Source: Yuukianura sp. NJ FZ-2021
Taxonomy: Eukaryota
Assembly: GCA_046563655.1 (NCBI GenBank)
Contig: CM102283.1
Location: forward strand, 9,796,001-9,860,000
Direction: 5' to 3'
Length of the DNA stretch: 64,000 nt
Below are positions 16,776 to 39,038 of this stretch, one piece after another. The position numbers and the translations under genes are program-made. The notes under the pieces were generated by a model that saw only the letters and a program-made list of their open reading frames with translations, did no database searches and was not told the DNA's origin. Every line of letters begins with the position of its first letter. Positions within the stretch are counted from its first letter, which is position 1.

Positions 16776-18556
16776 ATGTTTTTATGGATTGGAAAGTGTG
16801 TGACCTTTGGGTCACTTGTGCTGATCATTGTCATTGGAAATCATTGTGTGGAACCTCATGGACGCCTCATTGAACCTCCTTCCAGAAGTTCAGCATGGAG
16901 GTAAGTTTCTAACATTTTTTGAAACTTCTACTTTTTAGAAAGACTTTTTGAAAATTCTACTTTTTAGAAAATGTTAAGTGGAATATTCCACTTGTTTTTG
17001 TATAAGTTTTTAGTCTATTTTTTTGACGTAACTGACCACTTCCTTATAATTTCTACTTGTGAATTTAATGTGTTTGAATTGAGGCGTTGCCACACTTTTT
17101 TGCTCTAGTTAACTGGGCGTGTAATAAAAGTTAAATCTGATTTGGTGTTGAATTTTGCTTGAATTGCAGGTATGGTTTCAACACAACTGCCAATTACAAT
17201 GACCACGAACTGTACTGCGGTGGATTCTCTCGTCAGTATCAGAAAAACAAAGGGAAATGCGGAATCTGTGGAGATGTAAGAAGAATTTTAGAATTTAAAA
17301 ACTCAAATTGTCAAAATTTTTCAAAAGTTAATTTTAAATTTTGAATTGTAGGCTTACGACATGCCCCAACCGCGTCCAAATGAAGCAGGGGGAGTGTATG
17401 GCCAGGGCGTCATTGTACGCAAGTACCGTGTGGATTCCATCATCAGAATCAAAGTGGAACTCACAGCCAATCACAGGCAAGTTTCAACGCTATCCACTTT
17501 TTTTCTTTGAGTTTCAAATTTTGAAATTTTGAACTTTGGCTGATTTTGAACAGAGGTCACTTTGAATTCCGGTTGTGTCCAAACAACAATCCGAAGAAAA
17601 TTGCAACTCAGAAGTGCTTGGACACTTATGTTCTTCAGCAATCCAATGGCGAAGGCGCAAGGTCAGTGACCTCAGAATCTCGAAATTTTGTGTCATTTTC
17701 GAAAAAGAACTTAAAAATTAAAATTTCGTTTTTTTAAATAGATATTTTCCGTCCGAGGGCACGAAAGTATTCGAATCTAGATTTTTGTTGCCGAGAGGAT
17801 TGACGTGTACGCAGTGCGTGTTGCAATGGCGTTACATCGCTGGAAATAACTGGGGTCAATGCGAAGATGGAACTCAGGCGGTGGGCTGTGGGCCACAAGA
17901 GGAGTTCCGCGCATGTGCTGATGTCTCCATCACAAATAGTACTGGACATGCTGCCGCTGAACCTGACGATACTGTTGAACATGACAGAGACAACGAAATT
18001 GATAGACGTAAGACTCATAAATATCAAAAACTTAAAATTCAAAAAATGAAATGTCACTGAAAAAGTTAACTTTTGAAATTTAACAGAAAAAGCAGAGAAA
18101 CCATTCATACCTCCAACGACTGAACTCCCGCCGCGTCCAGAACAGCAGTCAGCTTTAGCCTTTGTGATGGCCATTGTTGCACTCATGATTGCCGCCATTT
18201 TGTTTGGAGCTCTCTTTGGGTGGTTCTACAGAAAAGAAGTTCTGCACTTCGCCAGAACAACAATCAACAAACCCAACTGGAAGTTGGGCAATGCTCAACA
18301 ATTCATTGCCACCAGAAGCACTACGTCTCTAACAACAGTCTATGCTTCTGCGCAGTCAGGTCACCATCCAGAACTGGGGGTCAACGGCAGACCAACGGTC
18401 CCCCCTCCGCCAATTCCTCCCCCCAGAAACAAAAAGACTTCGACCTCTGACCTTGACACACCAAAGTTCAACAGAACTGTTACCCCAGACATCATTGCCC
18501 CCCACCAACAACAACCACAGTCCCTCTCTGTTACAATCAATGGACTTCCGATTTAG
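16776..18556 (+). CDS. AA15 lytic polysaccharide monooxygenase (chitin-binding type-4 fold) with a C-terminal transmembrane helix and Pro-rich cytoplasmic tail
   Basis: Signal peptide followed by N-terminal His (HGRLIEPPSRSSAWR, His codon at 16857); ELYCGGF; CGICGD; ELTANHRGHFEFRLCP; CTQCVLQWRYIAGNNWG; GCGPQEEFRACADV; TM segment ALAFVMAIVALMIAAILFGALFGWFY followed by RK. Confidence 0.93.
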
Positions 18557-24455: not shown

Positions 24456-26103
24456 TATTTCACCCGCAAATCCTGCAAAATCAAAGCACAATATGTGGTT
24501 AGGTTTTTTACTAATTACTCAAATTTAAATTAGATTACTTTGAAGTTTTTAATTACTTTTCAAGTGAAGTGATAATGAAGCGGAATTAAGTCGTGGAAGT
24601 GTGGACGAGTCTCTTACTTTAAGCTCAGTAATCAGTTATTTGGAAGTTCCACGTTGCTACTCCAGAGAATTGCCGGTAATTGATGAAATGTTCCGGCAAG
24701 AACAGTTGTATAGAGTAAGAAGATTAATCGATTAACGACATCTAAGCTACAGAATACATCACAATTTAATTTACAAAAGTGACAGTGAAAAACGATAATT
24801 TTATCTGATTGTGAAATTTAAAATTTGAAAACAGCTGTCGAGCCCGCCACCACCACCATGGATGAGAATGGCGTCTGTTTTGCGTCATTCTCTTATGAAG
24901 ATGAACTTTTTAGCTCATGATTTTAACATTTTACATGCAATTAATTAAAATAGCAGTTTCAATTTGGGATTTAAAATAGTATATTTAATTATTTCTTATT
25001 TAACTTGTACAATGAACTGGTTTAATCCACAATTGTAAAGATTATAGTGGCCTACCCCACTCTTTCCGGCTTAGAAGTGACATTTGGACTAAGATTGATT
25101 GACATTTGACATTTAAATATCAAGAAATAGAAGATGAGGGTCAAAGATGTGAGAGGCGGCGGTGACCTGCCGTGACACAATTGACCTGCACTTTGTACCC
25201 TCTCCAAATAATTGTTCCAGGCTTAAGCTGAACTTCCAAACTTCCTCAAATTAAGGTTTCTCTGGAAGGTTCTGCTTCATGGAAAATTTAGTTTTGAGAT
25301 GATCCAAATTGTGAGTGATTGACATGGGGGGAAGCAATGTGGGCCAAAAATCACCTCCCAACTGCATGTTGGTTGAGCAATTTGCAATAAAAGCACAAGC
25401 ACTGTCAGCCATTTCAATTTATGACCACCATAAATCAACGGCATTCAAAACTCAAATTGAGCAGAGTGCACAGTACTTCACAAAATATTTGACAAATACT
25501 TAAGCACTTCACAAAAGTGCGAGAGAATCATTCTCGAAATAACACGAACATTTTGGAAATTGGTGGTTTTGCCCCGCCTGAGGTAGAACAAGGGCCATCA
25601 AATAATCATTTCGGGTAACTTTTTTTCTTTGGTGGAAATTACTATAATTTGGGACAATTTTAAAAGTTACTGGTCAAGTGCAGTGGAGCATAACTGCAGC
25701 ATCCGTTCACGTTTTAAAAAGTCAAAACTGTGTGATATAAATCCCATTCGGAGTTTTGAAAAGTGTTGAGTAGGATCTTCACTAGGTTTACGTCCACTTA
25801 TGTTCTAACCGTCACGTAGAGCAAGTCCATTTTGAACTTTGAGTCATACACGTAGCGTTGCGTAACTTTTATCACACGCAGAACGTAGGAAACTTTCAGT
25901 AAATTTTTAGAGAGATTACGGTATCAGTCAGGGCCAGAATTTTAAGACACTCGCACTCAAAAAGTACTGGGATTTCCTACTTCACATTTCTGCCCAAATA
26001 TCAACACTACACTGAAACTCAATTGTTCAAATAAACAATTTAAACTTTTTTTTAAATTTTTTAGAGCGGAGTTTTTGTGAGTCAAGACAAACTTTGGAAA
26101 AAA

Positions 26104-28370
26104 ATGTGCGGAATATTTGCAATCCTTAACTCATCTACAGTTCACACGGAAGAAGGCAGAAAGAAGGCTTTGGCACTTTCCAAATTGTACAAAATATACT
26201 TCAAAGTTAACTTTTTCCTACAATTTTTTTCAATTTCAATGTTTTTAACAGGTTGCGACATCGAGGGCCGGACTGGAGCGGTTGCAAAGTTTCAAACGGC
26301 AACATTCTCTGTCACGAACGCCTCGCTATTGTTGGACTCGGTAACTTTTAGCTTAATCAGCCTAACATAATTAAACAAAAAATAAACAAAATTTCGATTT
26401 CAACAACGTTTGTTTCGTGCAACAAACTATGAACCAATCATTAGTTAACTTTCAGAAATACAAAAGTTTCAAATGGCAACATTCTGTGTCACGAAAGACT
26501 TTATATTGGACTCAGTAGATTTTAAACCAATATTTACAGAAATTGCAAGAAAAGTGAACACTGTTTCAAAAAATGTCTAACCCTGAAAACACTTAACTTT
26601 TCAGTTTCTGCCGTGTCAAATTTAAAAAAAAACGAATTTTGTGTTTGATGGACAATTGTAAAATTTGCAGAACTTTTATTCCTAGACAGTGGATCTCAGC
26701 CACTCACCAATCACGATGGCACACTCATCCTCACAGTCAACGGAGAAATCTACAATCATGTTGAACTTCGCAAGTATCTCAAGAAAGATGTCACTTTTAA
26801 AACACACTCCGATTGCGAAATTATCATTCATCTGGTAACATTTCTAAATTTTACCAAAATTCTAGGAAATTTTCAAAATTTTAACTAAATTTTACGATTT
26901 TTCAATTTTTTTTGTCATTTTTGCAGTACGAAGCCCTTGGACTCTCATTTTTGAATCTTCTGCGCGGAATGTTCAGTTTCGTTTTGTACGACGGAAACAA
27001 AGATTTGTTTCTAATCGCTCGGGATCCAATTGGCATCACTTCTTTGTACCGCGGCAAAAATTCTGCTGCTCCAGAAACAATTTACGTCGCTTCAGAATTG
27101 AAAGCTCTGCAAGAAGATTGTGATGAAATTGAAGTTTTCCCGCCAGGACACTACTACAACTCCGCTTTCGGCAAAACTGTTCGCTACTACACTCCTGATT
27201 GGTGGGACAGCGATCGAATCCCGTCACAGCCATCAGATCTGACCATCCTTAGAGAAGCTCTTGAAGCGGCAGTGCACAAGCGCCTTATGGCTGACGTTCC
27301 ATTTGGAGTTCTGCTCAGCGGTGGACTGGATTCCAGCCTCATTGCCAGCATCACTGTGCGAGAGGCTGAAAAAATACTGCAGTGTCCAGACGAAGATGGA
27401 AGCGCCATCTACAACTGGCCAAAAGTACACTCTTTTTCTATTGGTTTAGAAGGATCACCTGATTTGAAAGCAGCAAAAGAAGTGGCAGATTTCATTGGTA
27501 AAATTTAAAAAAAATTAGTTTCAAAAAATTTTAAATGAAATTTTGAATTTTAAAATATGAAGATTTGAATTCTTAGGAACTAAACATCACAGTTTTATCT
27601 TCACGCTGGAAGAGGCTCATGACGCCCTCTATGACGTCATTTACCACTTGGAAACGTATGACGTCACGACCATCCGGGCGTCAACTCCAATGTACCTTCT
27701 GAGTCGGCGCATCAAAGCCATGGGCGTCAAAATGGTTTTGAGTGGCGAGGGAAGTGACGAAGTTTTCGGCGGCTACTTGTATTTTCACGCCGCGCCGTCA
27801 AGCTCCGCCTTCCACGCGGAATGCGTTTCCCGGGTCAAGAATCTGCATCTATCAGACTGCCTCCGGGCAAACAAGTCCACGATGGCATGGGGGCTGGAGG
27901 CTCGTGTTCCGTTTCTGGACATTGACTTCCTCCAAGTTGCGATGAATATCAATCCGGAAGAAAAAGAGTTCGGAGATGGAAAAATGGAAAAATATGTTCT
28001 GCGCAAGGCATTTGATGTTCCCGAAGAACCTTACTTGCCCCACCACATTCTGTGGCGCCAAAAAGAACAGTTTTCAGATGGAGTTGGTTATGGGTGGATC
28101 GACTCTTTAAAAGAAGCCGCTGAGTCGCACATCAGCGATGAGCTGTTTGATCAGCGACATAAACGCTGGACCGTGGATGTTCCAGAGACAAAGGAAGCGT
28201 ACTGGTATCGCTTGATGTTCGATACGCTGTTTCCGAATCCAGCAGCAGCGTCCACAGTGTCGAGATGGATCCCAAGGTCTGACTGGGGGTGCTCAAGGGA
28301 CCCCTCTGGAAGGGCTCAGAAAGTACACACTGCTGCTTATGCCAACTTCCAAAATGGAAACTCACACTGA
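26104..28370 (+). CDS. ASNS: Asparagine synthetase, glutamine-hydrolysing (fungal/AsnB-type sequence); 5 exons
   Basis: N-terminal MCGI (Ntn Cys); [87 protein letters not shown]. Confidence 0.96.
26456..26514 (+). other. Partial tandem duplicate of ASNS exon 2 inside intron 2 (pseudo-exon or mutually exclusive exon)
   Basis: aaagtttcaaatggcaacattctgtgtcacgaaagact..attggactc closely copies exon-2 sequence 26286-26339. It is flanked by tttcag and gtagat. Confidence 0.75.
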
Positions 28371-28439
28371 GCTGCTCTACTTTACACCAAAGTCTCCATT
28401 TCCAGTTGAAAATCTCCATTTCAAGATGAAATTTTCCAT

Positions 28440-28840
28440 TTCCAGTTTTTTCCAGAAATTTTTAATTTTCCTCTCATTTTCATCCTTCTTTTTCAAACCG
28501 TTCAAAAAACATCTCCCAAAGTAAAAATGATGACTTTAAATAAAAATGCAAAAAAAAAATCGAATGTGGTGAATTATAGTTGTGCAATGTTTGGACAAGT
28601 ATGGTTTGGAGTTTGCAAAAACTTGATGTAAATTTTTCATTTCCAGTTAAAATTTTCAATTTTTCTCTCATTTTTCCTGCTGGTTTTTAAAGTCGTTCTA
28701 AAACATTCATCATGGAATAAAGTAGAAATGATGACTTTTGGAATTAAAACAGAAATGTGAAAATTGAATGTTGTGAGTTGTAAATTGTATAATGTTTGAG
28801 CAAGTATTTTTTTGAGTTTACAGAAACTTGATGTAATTTA
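28440..28840. repeat. Degenerate tandem duplication of about 200 bp downstream of ASNS
   Basis: aaagtaaaaatgatgacttt (~28518) vs aaagtagaaatgatgacttt (~28719); gaatgtggtgaatt..caagtat..aaacttgatgtaa (~28562-28631) vs gaatgttgtgagtt..caagtat..aaacttgatgtaa (~28766-28836). Confidence 0.6.
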
Positions 28841-36308: not shown

Positions 36309-39038
36309 CTAATCTAGAAACAAGTCATTCCAGGGGAACGGTGGTATACAATGTTCTTCAGTAACAATCACTGAATCATGGTACTTCATCAATACTTCCA
36401 GGTACTCGTCCTTCTGAAATTGGAAATTTTATCTTTATTCACATATTCTCTTTTTAAAAATTTTGGAATATTAGGATTATGTGTAGAAAGTAATTCAACA
36501 CTCACCTCATTAAAATCCTCAGGATCGAAGACGAGTTTTTGAAGGCGTCGTAGTTGCCCAGTTTGGCTGGCGTAAATAACCCCCTTCCAGCACTCAATTT
36601 TCAGGAACGATATGAACTTCAAATGTGTCAGTACTAGTAAAAGCAAACAACATTTGTCAATACATGCACCGCAACGTGAACGATCATTTTGTATTTCTGG
36701 ATGGATTTTTTTTTGGCGTTTACAACGGTTTACTAATTTATCGATCAAAAAATTAAAAGATAAAAAGCTGTATTATAAAAATTGATGACTTACACGGCAA
36801 ATTTCGAAAAGAATCAATTGACTCGGAAGTTTTCTCAACTACTGGCAGAGAATTGGTGATGTCGCCATTCGAAATGTATTCAGCTCCGTTGGTTAGGTGG
36901 TTCCAGTGTTTAAATTGAAGTTCACGAATATCATCAGGTTCATTTGCTTCAGAATGGACATAAATGTGCAGTTTCTGAACCTTTGGAAACTGGAAAATCC
37001 CTTTCAATGTTTCAGAGGCAACGCACAATTCAGTAACGTTGGGCAGTACGGAAGGCCAATGTTGACGCTCTTGGTCCGTTTTCAAGTAGATATTTGCGTA
37101 TTTCACATTTGGAAAAACACATCCAGCAAACATGAACTTATCCGTCGTTCCACGATATATGCAGTCGAGCGATGTTAGAGCTGGAAATTCCACCGTGTGA
37201 CGTAAAGTGACTGATTCGTATGGGAAATAAAGTTCCAGACATTGAACATTTGCGAGGGAACGGAGTGGTAGTTCAATTGGACCAATGTAGTGGTTATGAC
37301 CATTGTCGTCTCTCCAGAAGTGGAGACATTCTACATATAATCTGCGCAAAGATGTCAGCTTTGGAATCCATTTTGAAATAATTTCCAGGGTTTGAGCTAC
37401 ACTTCCAGAACTGGGATCCCGTGGAATCAAGAATAATTCCAAGTTGAGAATTTTGAATTTCGTTGAAACTGCAACCAAGTTTTCGAGGTCACTGATGTTC
37501 ACCTCTGGAAAGTGAATAATCAGATGCAACTTTTGAATGTGGACGATTCTATTGATTTTGAAGAGATGGTTTAAGATGTTTGGCGCAAGAGTACGGTATG
37601 ATGTCTCATGATAGTGTAAATCTCCAACACATTGGATTGAAACGTTCCGAAGATTTGGAGCCTTTTGCAGAAGAACCAGAAGATTATTGAAATCCACTTT
37701 GTCCATAGAATCGTCGGCTTGGATCTTGATTGTTTTTAACTTTCTGAGTGCAGGCATTTCCAGAATATTGGCCATTTCCTCTTTCACAGTTGGCACAGTT
37801 CCCTCTTCCCCAATTCGATAACGGATTTTTTCTACATTTTCGCATGTTTCCAACAGGATTTGGAAGTTGTTGAACAGAGAATTCTGTTTTAGCGGTTGCC
37901 GGCAGGACATCCAAATTCGCCAGCATTTAACAATCCTTCCAAACTGGACACAAAACTCTTCCAGTGGCTCCCCATACGCGGAGAGATGTTGCGAAAATCC
38001 AAACTTTTTGAACGGAACGACCGTTTCGTTTTGTCCAAACACCGAAATAAACTTGACAATGTCAGAGTCTTCTGTAAAGTTCACTCGAAACAACTTGGTC
38101 ATACATGTCGTTGCTAGTTGGTTGAAGCGGTGATTGACCAGGCGCAACTTTGGAATTTCTTGCTTCCTCAAACAACCGATGATTTGAAGCACAATCTGAA
38201 ACACAATAAGATTGTTAATCATTTGAAGTCAACAAGAACGTGTCTAATTTTAACTTTTTTGTATGTCAAATGTTGTTCGAGCTGAGATTCTTGTTGTATA
38301 AAAATACGTCTTGGATGTTTAAAATAACGTTATTCAGTGGAATGCAAAACCAAAAGACAGTGCCAAAATATCCGCATATTCCCTGTCAACCTGTGTAGAG
38401 TCTAATTTGTTTCAAGGTCGAAGATTGCAATAGTTTTTACAACTAGGAGCCAAGTTGACCTTACCTCGTTTGGAATGGAATCCATGTTGGCACTGGCAGT
38501 GGAACACAAACGACCAGGATCACTTGCGAGAGACGGAGTCGTTGTTGTGACTTTTTCCAATTTTGCGGGTACTGGTTTTGACGATGAAGCTGACGACGAA
38601 GGAACTGATGTTGAAGATGCCACAGTCGTTCCTAATGTTGCTTCTTCATTGCTATTCCCAAAGGCCAAGGTCTTCGACTAGAATAATTACAAAAGCAATT
38701 ACCAATTGAATTTAGGTCAGTTTATGAAATGAAACTCACTTTTTCATGAGCAACCTTGGCATGCCTCAGAATGGCAATAATGTCTCCCATAGCAGTGATT
38801 TCCATATCGCGGAGACACTCTTTCGTAAGATCCAGGAGCATGTCCGGTTTAATCCGATTGTCTTCAAACACCAACGCATATTTGGTGTCGAAAGTGGGTA
38901 GAATTCCAGCATTCCTGAAGAAGTCCAACCAGAAGGCTAAACAAGACAAAATATCAAATTAAAACAAATTGAATTCCCAAACTAATTCGTAAATCAGTGG
39001 AAATTCTTACCATATAACTTTCCCTTTTCAGCAGACAT
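36309..39038 (-). CDS. Chimeric gene: C19orf47-derived SAM-like N-terminus fused to an F-box / LRR-like protein
   Basis: Predicted exons 39038-39011, ~38936-38740, ~38677-38465, 38195-36794, ~36633-36506 and ~36414-36309 join in frame. The duplicated C19orf47 exons run into ...PSLASDPGRLCSTASAN-MDSIPNE|IVLQIIGCLRKQEIPKLRLVNHRFNQLA (F-box), followed by LRR-like repeats (PALRKLKTIKI, APNLRNVSI, LTSLRRLYV, FPALTSL, FPNVK, LPNVTEL). Confidence 0.75.

Follow-up and report, generated by a model that had tools for sequence, protein, structure and literature searches.

The transfer of genes from fungi to arthropods is already known as an event, with the carotenoid genes of aphids and mites and several springtail genes among the examples. 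Springtail genomes have been reported to contain many foreign genes, including genes for beta-lactam synthesis and for carbohydrate-degrading enzymes. Such acquisitions match the case described here both in the type of event and in the group of animals, and asparagine synthetase is not mentioned in those main texts of the reports that we found. The supplements of the Folsomia (three files) and Orchesella (two of three files) genome papers also hold no asparagine synthetase entry. One invertebrate asparagine synthetase has been flagged as horizontally acquired, C. elegans asns-2, which is listed as a foreign gene by Crisp et al. 2015 (PMC4358723). In the literature searched, we found no paper on an asparagine synthetase transfer that involves springtails, mites, or Entomophthoromycotina. 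Here we describe an asparagine synthetase gene (ASNS) on the forward strand of a 64,000-nucleotide stretch of DNA (contig CM102283.1 of assembly GCA_046563655.1; the window from here on), and we read it as a probable further case of fungus-to-arthropod transfer.

We consider it likely that an ASNS gene with its introns passed as genomic DNA into a springtail lineage from an Entomophthoromycotina-related fungus, and that it afterwards underwent amelioration and gained intron 4. The gene is intact and consists of five exons and four introns. It occupies positions 26104 to 28370 on the plus strand, with an ATG at 26104 and a TGA at 28368-28370, which are exactly the limits given by a first-pass annotation made by reading the window. 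The three peptide stretches quoted in that annotation are also present; exon 4 holds the first of them and exon 5 the second and third. The spliced exons amount to 1686 bases and encode a protein of 561 amino acids in a reading frame without a stop, and all four introns begin with GT and end with AG. The features of the gene are as follows.

26104..26186, plus strand: exon 1, with a Met-Cys-Gly-Ile start that places the glutaminase catalytic Cys right after the initiator Met.
26187..26251, plus strand: intron 1, 65 bp, GT-AG, GC 0.22, phase 2 in codon 28.
26252..26340, plus strand: exon 2, RHRGPDWSG ... ERLAIVGL.
26341..26685, plus strand: intron 2, 345 bp, GC 0.29, phase 1 in codon 58 (Asp).
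26686..26834, plus strand: exon 3, DSGSQPL ... SDCEIIIHL.
26835..26926, plus strand: intron 3, 92 bp, GC 0.20, phase 0, between Leu107 and Tyr108.
26927..27497, plus strand: exon 4, last part of the glutaminase domain and first part of the synthetase domain; PP-loop SGGLDSS at residue 238.
27498..27576, plus strand: intron 4, 79 bp, GC 0.13, phase 1 in codon 298.
27577..28370, plus strand: exon 5, synthetase domain (Pfam Asn_synthase, E 2.9e-55), C-terminal WIPRSDWGC, and the TGA stop at 28368-28370.
28539..28544, plus strand: AATAAA, a possible poly(A) signal 169 nt past the stop.

The AATAAA hexamer occurs 81 times in the window against 98.9 expected. Because it is not enriched, the copy at 28539..28544 is weak as a poly(A) signal.

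The domain content of the protein is that of an asparagine synthetase. Pfam found GATase_7 (E 5.4e-13) followed by Asn_synthase (E 4.7e-21) in exon 4, and Asn_synthase again in exon 5. The motifs MCGI at residue 1, SGGLDSS at residue 238, SGEGSDE at residue 353, and [12 protein letters not shown] at residue 457 are all present. Over exons 4 and 5, the protein aligns colinearly with residues 106-289 and 292-552 of E. coli AsnB (1CT9), and the two enzymes share the PP-loop and synthetase motifs and the N-terminal Cys nucleophile. Exon 5 scored 310 bits against E. coli AsnB and 172 bits against human-type ASNS, and exon 4 scored 166.5 and 51.6 bits, respectively. Because of these scores and the colinearity with 1CT9, we assign the protein to the AsnB/fungal type and not to the human type. 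The solved human- and vertebrate-type enzymes (PDB 6GQ3, 8SUE, 9B6C) belong to the same enzyme family, with the same two-domain plan and reaction, but their similarity to the window protein is low and they carry an SDELTQGY-type stretch where it has SDEVFGGY. The first-pass annotation had called the gene a fungal-type ASNS by comparing it with yeast and vertebrate motifs. We saw its yeast motifs in Saccharomycetaceae matches (Tetrapisispora, Kluyveromyces, Lachancea) and its vertebrate motifs in the alignment to solved human-type ASNS, and the bit scores, together with best matches that are fungi, agree with the call.

Judged by these domains and motifs, the gene product is predicted to be a working glutamine-dependent asparagine synthetase of the AsnB type (EC 6.3.5.4). 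In such an enzyme, the N-terminal Cys would hydrolyze glutamine, and the ammonia would move to the C-terminal PP-loop domain. There, ATP would activate aspartate as beta-aspartyl-AMP, which would then be converted to asparagine.

The closest relatives of the protein are fungal. With exon 5 as the query, the top identity among the best 120 of 8000 scored proteins was 75%. The named proteins among these 120 were all from fungi, except for Oppiella nova, Dermatophagoides pteronyssinus, Physarum, and one plant-transcriptome entry, and no named springtail or insect was among them, many rows being without a name. Over the full length, identity was 71.7% to Neoconidiobolus thromboides, 69.9% to a Logan protein, and 69.6% to Entomophthora muscae. 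When we considered 50%-identity cluster representatives, one fungal protein matched at 72% and the other full-length ones at 65% or less, with a few short fragments reaching up to 80% over part of the query. A scan of JGI metagenome contigs yielded 80 further loci, with gene structures taken from tblastn and the sequences. The closest relative that we found is one of these, L081 (2886 bp), with 78% identity over the large exon. The kinship to fungi claimed by the first-pass annotation thus stands, with a change of group: it had pointed to yeasts, and full-length identity and the trees point to the Entomophthoromycotina instead.

Individual sequence characters agree with this placement. Five near-exclusive residues, each found in at most 5% of the other rows, are common to the window gene and the Entomophthoromycotina set, compared with zero or one shared with each of nine other groups. 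The linker between the AFD and YLP motifs is five residues long in the window gene, in L081, in a second metagenome locus, L082, in protein P0001, and in all three Entomophthoromycotina and all three Zoopagomycotina. It is nine residues long in four of the five mites (the motif was not found in the fifth), in 23 of 26 Mucoromycotina, and in 30 of 34 Ascomycota. The window gene and most of the named fungi carry the C-terminal motif W[IV]P[KR]x[DE]WGC, with counts of 26/26 for Mucoromycota, 20/20 for Basidiomycota, and 20/34 for Ascomycota. The motif occurs in 2 of 101 other cluster representatives and in none of the 12 bacteria, which is one way in which E. coli AsnB and its bacterial relatives differ from the window protein. 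Taken together, the window gene resembles the Asn1/Asn2-type ASNS of the Entomophthoromycotina (Neoconidiobolus thromboides, Entomophthora muscae, Massospora cicadina) in its domains, its WIP..DWGC motif, and its five-residue linker. It differs from them in lying between animal genes in an animal genome, and in having an extra intron at codon 298 and a C-terminal extension of nine residues.

Phylogenetic trees placed the window gene with the same fungi. In a FastTree analysis of 298 rows, support was 0.996 for its grouping with the three named Entomophthoromycotina and 0.952 for the surrounding fungal clade, which has 199 rows. Fungal phyla were recovered about as expected in this tree, and the mites fell beside Mucoromycotina. 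A quick IQ-TREE run with 77 rows agreed with this placement. Using IQ-TREE with the LG+C20 model and posterior mean site frequencies (PMSF) on 54 rows and 572 columns, we found that the gene, P0001, and the Entomophthoromycotina form a clade with support 100/99, within a fungal clade at 97/97. The terminal branch of the window gene in this tree was 0.55, compared with 0.07-0.22 for the fungi. Bacterial AsnB of 12 named genomes formed a separate, compact clade, the other way in which the bacterial enzymes differ. In the 54-row tree, the Entomophthoromycotina clade was one arm of a fungal polytomy, not joined to the Zoopagomycota. When metagenome relatives were added (65 rows), the window gene and L081 grouped at 99 and an eight-row Entomophthoromycotina-like clade, to which L082/L083 also belong, was recovered at 100. 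This clade joined Zoopagomycotina and Kickxellomycotina at 92. The fungal species tree likewise puts Entomophthoromycotina beside Zoopagomycotina and Kickxellomycotina.

Three rows in these trees have oddities of their own. The protein of Massospora cicadina (P0012) lies outside the best 45 full-length matches listed, yet it falls in the Entomophthoromycotina clade. It diverges from all of its relatives right around the intron-2 site and is missing about 29 residues further on, which looks like a mis-called gene model and not like biology. In addition, P0025 from the slime mould Physarum and P0014 from an Anthurium transcriptome are inside the fungal clade. The grouping of P0014 with Glomeromycota suggests that the transcriptome was contaminated by a fungus.

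We compared the intron positions of the window gene with those of the metagenome loci. The position and phase of intron 1 are common to L081 and L082/L083. Intron 2 has its exact position and phase in L098 and L124, and in many other loci the matches start at residue 58. In L081, the intron-2 break lies at the same place with a non-GT donor, or 4 nt off under the GT-AG rule. The position and phase of intron 3 are common to L081, L082/L083, L098, and L103. The nearest relatives of L098 and L124 are from Gyalolechia, a lichen ascomycete, and that of L103 is from Ascosphaera. Because introns 2 and 3 are shared with these Pezizomycotina-like loci, we conclude that they are old positions of the fungal gene. 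For intron 4, at codon 298, we saw no equivalent among the 80 metagenome loci, and it is therefore a candidate gain in the animal lineage. The first-pass annotation had described the introns as host-style. They are indeed AT-rich like those of the neighbouring genes, but the comparison with fungal genes speaks against their being host additions, since introns 1-3 are shared with fungal-clade loci and only intron 4 is unique to the window gene. Outside the exons, we detected no DNA similarity between the window and either L081 or L082, and the eight open reading frames (ORFs) flanking the gene in L082 had no Pfam family.

The shared introns argue for a transfer at the level of DNA, in which an intron-bearing gene moved. 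They also argue against a transfer of the cDNA type, and we dropped that candidate. That donor intron positions are still visible suggests that the DNA moved as an intact genomic copy.

Introns alone do not separate transfer from vertical descent. The sharing of introns 2 and 3 as far as Pezizomycotina would also be expected if springtails and fungi had kept, and most other animals had lost, an old opisthokont gene of the AsnB type whose introns lay at codons 58 and 107/108. The grouping with Entomophthoromycotina would then be an artefact of long branches or of sampling. Several other results also count against transfer and leave room for such a history. In approximately unbiased (AU) tests, constraining the 45 other fungal-clade rows to group without the gene cost 29.1 log-likelihood units (lnL) with a marginal p-AU of 0.040. 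Constraining 44 rows against the gene, L081, and seven outgroups, with L082, P0001, and P0065 left free and two metagenome relatives added, cost 27.0 lnL (p-AU 0.0625), and a place outside the named fungi is thus not firmly rejected. The constraint groups were moreover defined after the trees were seen. In the 65-row tree, the window gene and L081 are not nested among the named Entomophthoromycotina; together with L082 and the crown of named species they make up a trichotomy, and P0001 branches below it. The labelled non-fungal eukaryotes in the trees are Physarum, the mites, and the plant-transcriptome entry, each of which falls within the fungal clade, and the labelled outgroup rows include no holozoan or plant. 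If L081, L082/L083, and P0001 are animals, intron 1 is uninformative on the donor.

Other results are difficult to reconcile with vertical descent, and we regard it as unlikely. The grouping with Entomophthoromycotina has full or nearly full branch support in both IQ-TREE analyses described above. Better sampling joined the clade to other Zoopagomycota, as the fungal species tree predicts, and the five near-exclusive residues are shared with the Entomophthoromycotina. No named animal besides mites appears among the best 120 of 8000 matches. Descent from an opisthokont ancestor would need many independent losses. All other arthropod sequences that we found came from mites, and these occupy a different part of the fungal clade. 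Constraining the window gene to group with them cost 69.5 lnL, and because the p-AU was 5.3e-7, a single arthropod origin with mites is rejected. Taken together, the placement of the gene inside the fungi has strong branch support, and the AU tests of it are only marginal. The nesting within fungi that the first-pass annotation expected is thus supported by the branches of the maximum-likelihood trees and only marginally by the topology tests.

The direction of movement can be questioned in the same trees. An arthropod gene could have passed to an ancestor of the Entomophthoromycotina, or both could have received the gene from an unsampled lineage; the trichotomy of the 65-row tree with P0001 below it, and the polytomy of the 54-row tree, are compatible with either course. 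We consider these possibilities quite improbable. The clade falls within the radiation of the fungi, where Zoopagomycotina and Kickxellomycotina are its neighbours, and the window gene has the C-terminal motif and the linker length of the fungal clade. The solved animal ASNS are of a different type.

The genes around ASNS are those of an animal. Pfam families in the window include calpain, CBM_14 (peritrophin-A chitin-binding), TFIIA-gamma, septin, Epimerase (NAD-dependent), PIG-M, PRORP, ATG5, and COLFI (fibrillar-collagen C-terminal), and reading of its sequence makes the Epimerase neighbour GDP-fucose-synthase-like. Animal genes flank ASNS on both sides, as the first-pass annotation had described. 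COLFI, CBM_14, calpain, and the other animal families speak against the idea that the whole window is fungal, and we dropped it. The best named match of the single-exon PIG-M gene was the springtail Allacma fusca at 63%, with other matches up to 83%, and its next named matches were crustaceans and fishes at 44-50%. Because the nearest named relative of PIG-M is Allacma fusca, we conclude that the host is a springtail or close kin, in line with the hexapod host guessed earlier.

The base composition of ASNS resembles that of its neighbours. Its coding sequence has a GC content of 0.482 and a GC content at third codon positions (GC3) of 0.495, and 12 neighbouring coding stretches have GC3 values of 0.38-0.56. 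Relative synonymous codon usage (RSCU) in ASNS correlated with that of six pooled neighbours at r=0.62. Short AT-rich introns are found in the neighbouring genes as well.

We also looked for the gene in sequencing runs, and six DNA runs hold parts of the stretch. Runs X1-X4 share a single sample and may be what the assembly was built from, X5 has another organism label and comes from another study, and X6 is a metagenome run. Contigs of the runs were compared over positions 25900-28600. X5 contigs bridge introns 1, 2, and 3, one of them spanning 26304-26808 with 22 differences and 4 gaps, and X5 contigs over exon 5 have 4 differences in 569 bases. In X6, a 151-base contig crosses all of intron 4 with zero differences. 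We conclude that the gene and its introns are present in independent data. In run X1, there were 162 variant positions in the 2.7 kb of 25900-28600, which points to a highly heterozygous or a pooled sample. Of the 40 variants listed, with 122 more outside the listing, 26 fall in 1015 non-exon bases and 14 are exonic, with 13 synonymous and one changing Ile to Leu. Because 13 of the 14 listed exonic variants are synonymous, we conclude that ASNS is under purifying selection.

These data bear on contamination or a chimeric assembly, in which the gene would come from a fungus inhabiting the body or the surface of the sequenced animal and the assembler would have attached it to animal DNA. Entomophthoromycotina do infect springtails, according to PMC10386553, the assembly may derive from the one sample of runs X1-X4, and the comparison of independent contigs took in 25900-28600, where none bridged the gene to a neighbouring gene. 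In spite of this, we consider contamination highly improbable. The gene has animal genes on both sides in one 64-kb stretch and shares their composition and GC3, and its identity of 69.6-71.7% to the nearest named fungi means that no known infecting fungus is its source. X5 and X6 contain the same gene with its introns, and intron 4 is found in no fungal-clade locus. The view of the first-pass annotation that contamination is unlikely is upheld by the surrounding animal genes and by these two runs.

The transfer that we favour, from an Entomophthoromycotina-related fungus, could have proceeded in the following way. DNA of such a fungus would have entered the germ line of an ancestor of the animal, bringing in the gene along with a minimum of two introns, probably three. 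If the gene is expressed, the animal spliceosome would go on using the fungal intron sites. The intron sequences would have drifted to the AT-rich composition of the host, a fourth intron would have been added, and the base composition of the gene would have come to be like that of its neighbours. Contact between donor and host is plausible because Entomophthoromycotina infect Collembola and mites, as stated in PMC10386553.

A fungal-clade ASNS is also carried by acariform mites (Dermatophagoides, Blomia, Sarcoptes, Oppiella; proteins P0034, P0067, P0121, P0124, and P0158) and by one metagenome locus, L085. When a mite protein was used as the query, the matches were other acariform mites, followed by Mucoromycota at 63%. 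In the 54-row IQ-TREE analysis, the mite clade (99/95) lies inside Mucoromycota with supports of 86-93. The mite and window genes are thus alike as fungal-clade ASNS genes of arthropods, but they differ in the grouping with Mucoromycota, in the nine-residue linker, and in the rejection of a common origin by the AU test. On this sequence evidence, the mite ASNS is a separate candidate for a fungus-to-mite transfer. A broader hypothesis can be put forward tentatively, and we hold it with less than even confidence: soil microarthropods may have taken up intron-bearing fungal ASNS genes at least twice, a springtail lineage from an Entomophthoromycotina pathogen and acariform mites from a Mucoromycota-like fungus, with the fungal introns of the springtail gene surviving the change of kingdom to be spliced by the animal and the native ASNS perhaps replaced.

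If the springtail gene was acquired in this way, a core enzyme of amino-acid biosynthesis coming from a lineage of arthropod pathogens would be an unusual capture, and the gene would be a rare natural test of fungal introns functioning in an animal. Together with the mite gene and nematode asns-2, it raises the question of why asparagine synthetase is captured repeatedly. Should the native ASNS be gone, a foreign gene would have become essential to a soil animal.

Two other open frames in the window are of note. An ORF at 17722-18060 on the plus strand has a weak match to LPMO_10 (lytic polysaccharide mono-oxygenase; E 2e-4, 22.6 bits), just below the Pfam cut-off. At 36753-38228 on the minus strand, an open frame of 491 amino acids adjoins PIG-M and has no Pfam family.

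Introns 2 and 3 and the 3' flank of ASNS contain several repeated sequences. Within intron 2, positions 26463-26508 are a degenerate direct copy of the 3' part of exon 2 (26286-26331), with 85% identity over 46 nt and a spacing of 177. In run X1, one contig passes over 214 bases (26357-26570), this copy among them, which may be an indel polymorphism. At 26355-26445 in intron 2 and 26846-26882 in intron 3, contig depth is increased several-fold in both X1 and X5, and loose ends flank each stretch, which suggests that these are small multi-copy elements. In intron 2, the multi-copy stretch lies at about 26377-26410 in both runs; when we searched for it elsewhere in the window, it matched only itself. 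Downstream of the stop codon, a 20-bp tandem repeat is present in three copies at 28389-28447. Further into the 3' flank, there is a duplication of about 205 bp, with 28580-28634 and 28785-28839 being 82% identical.

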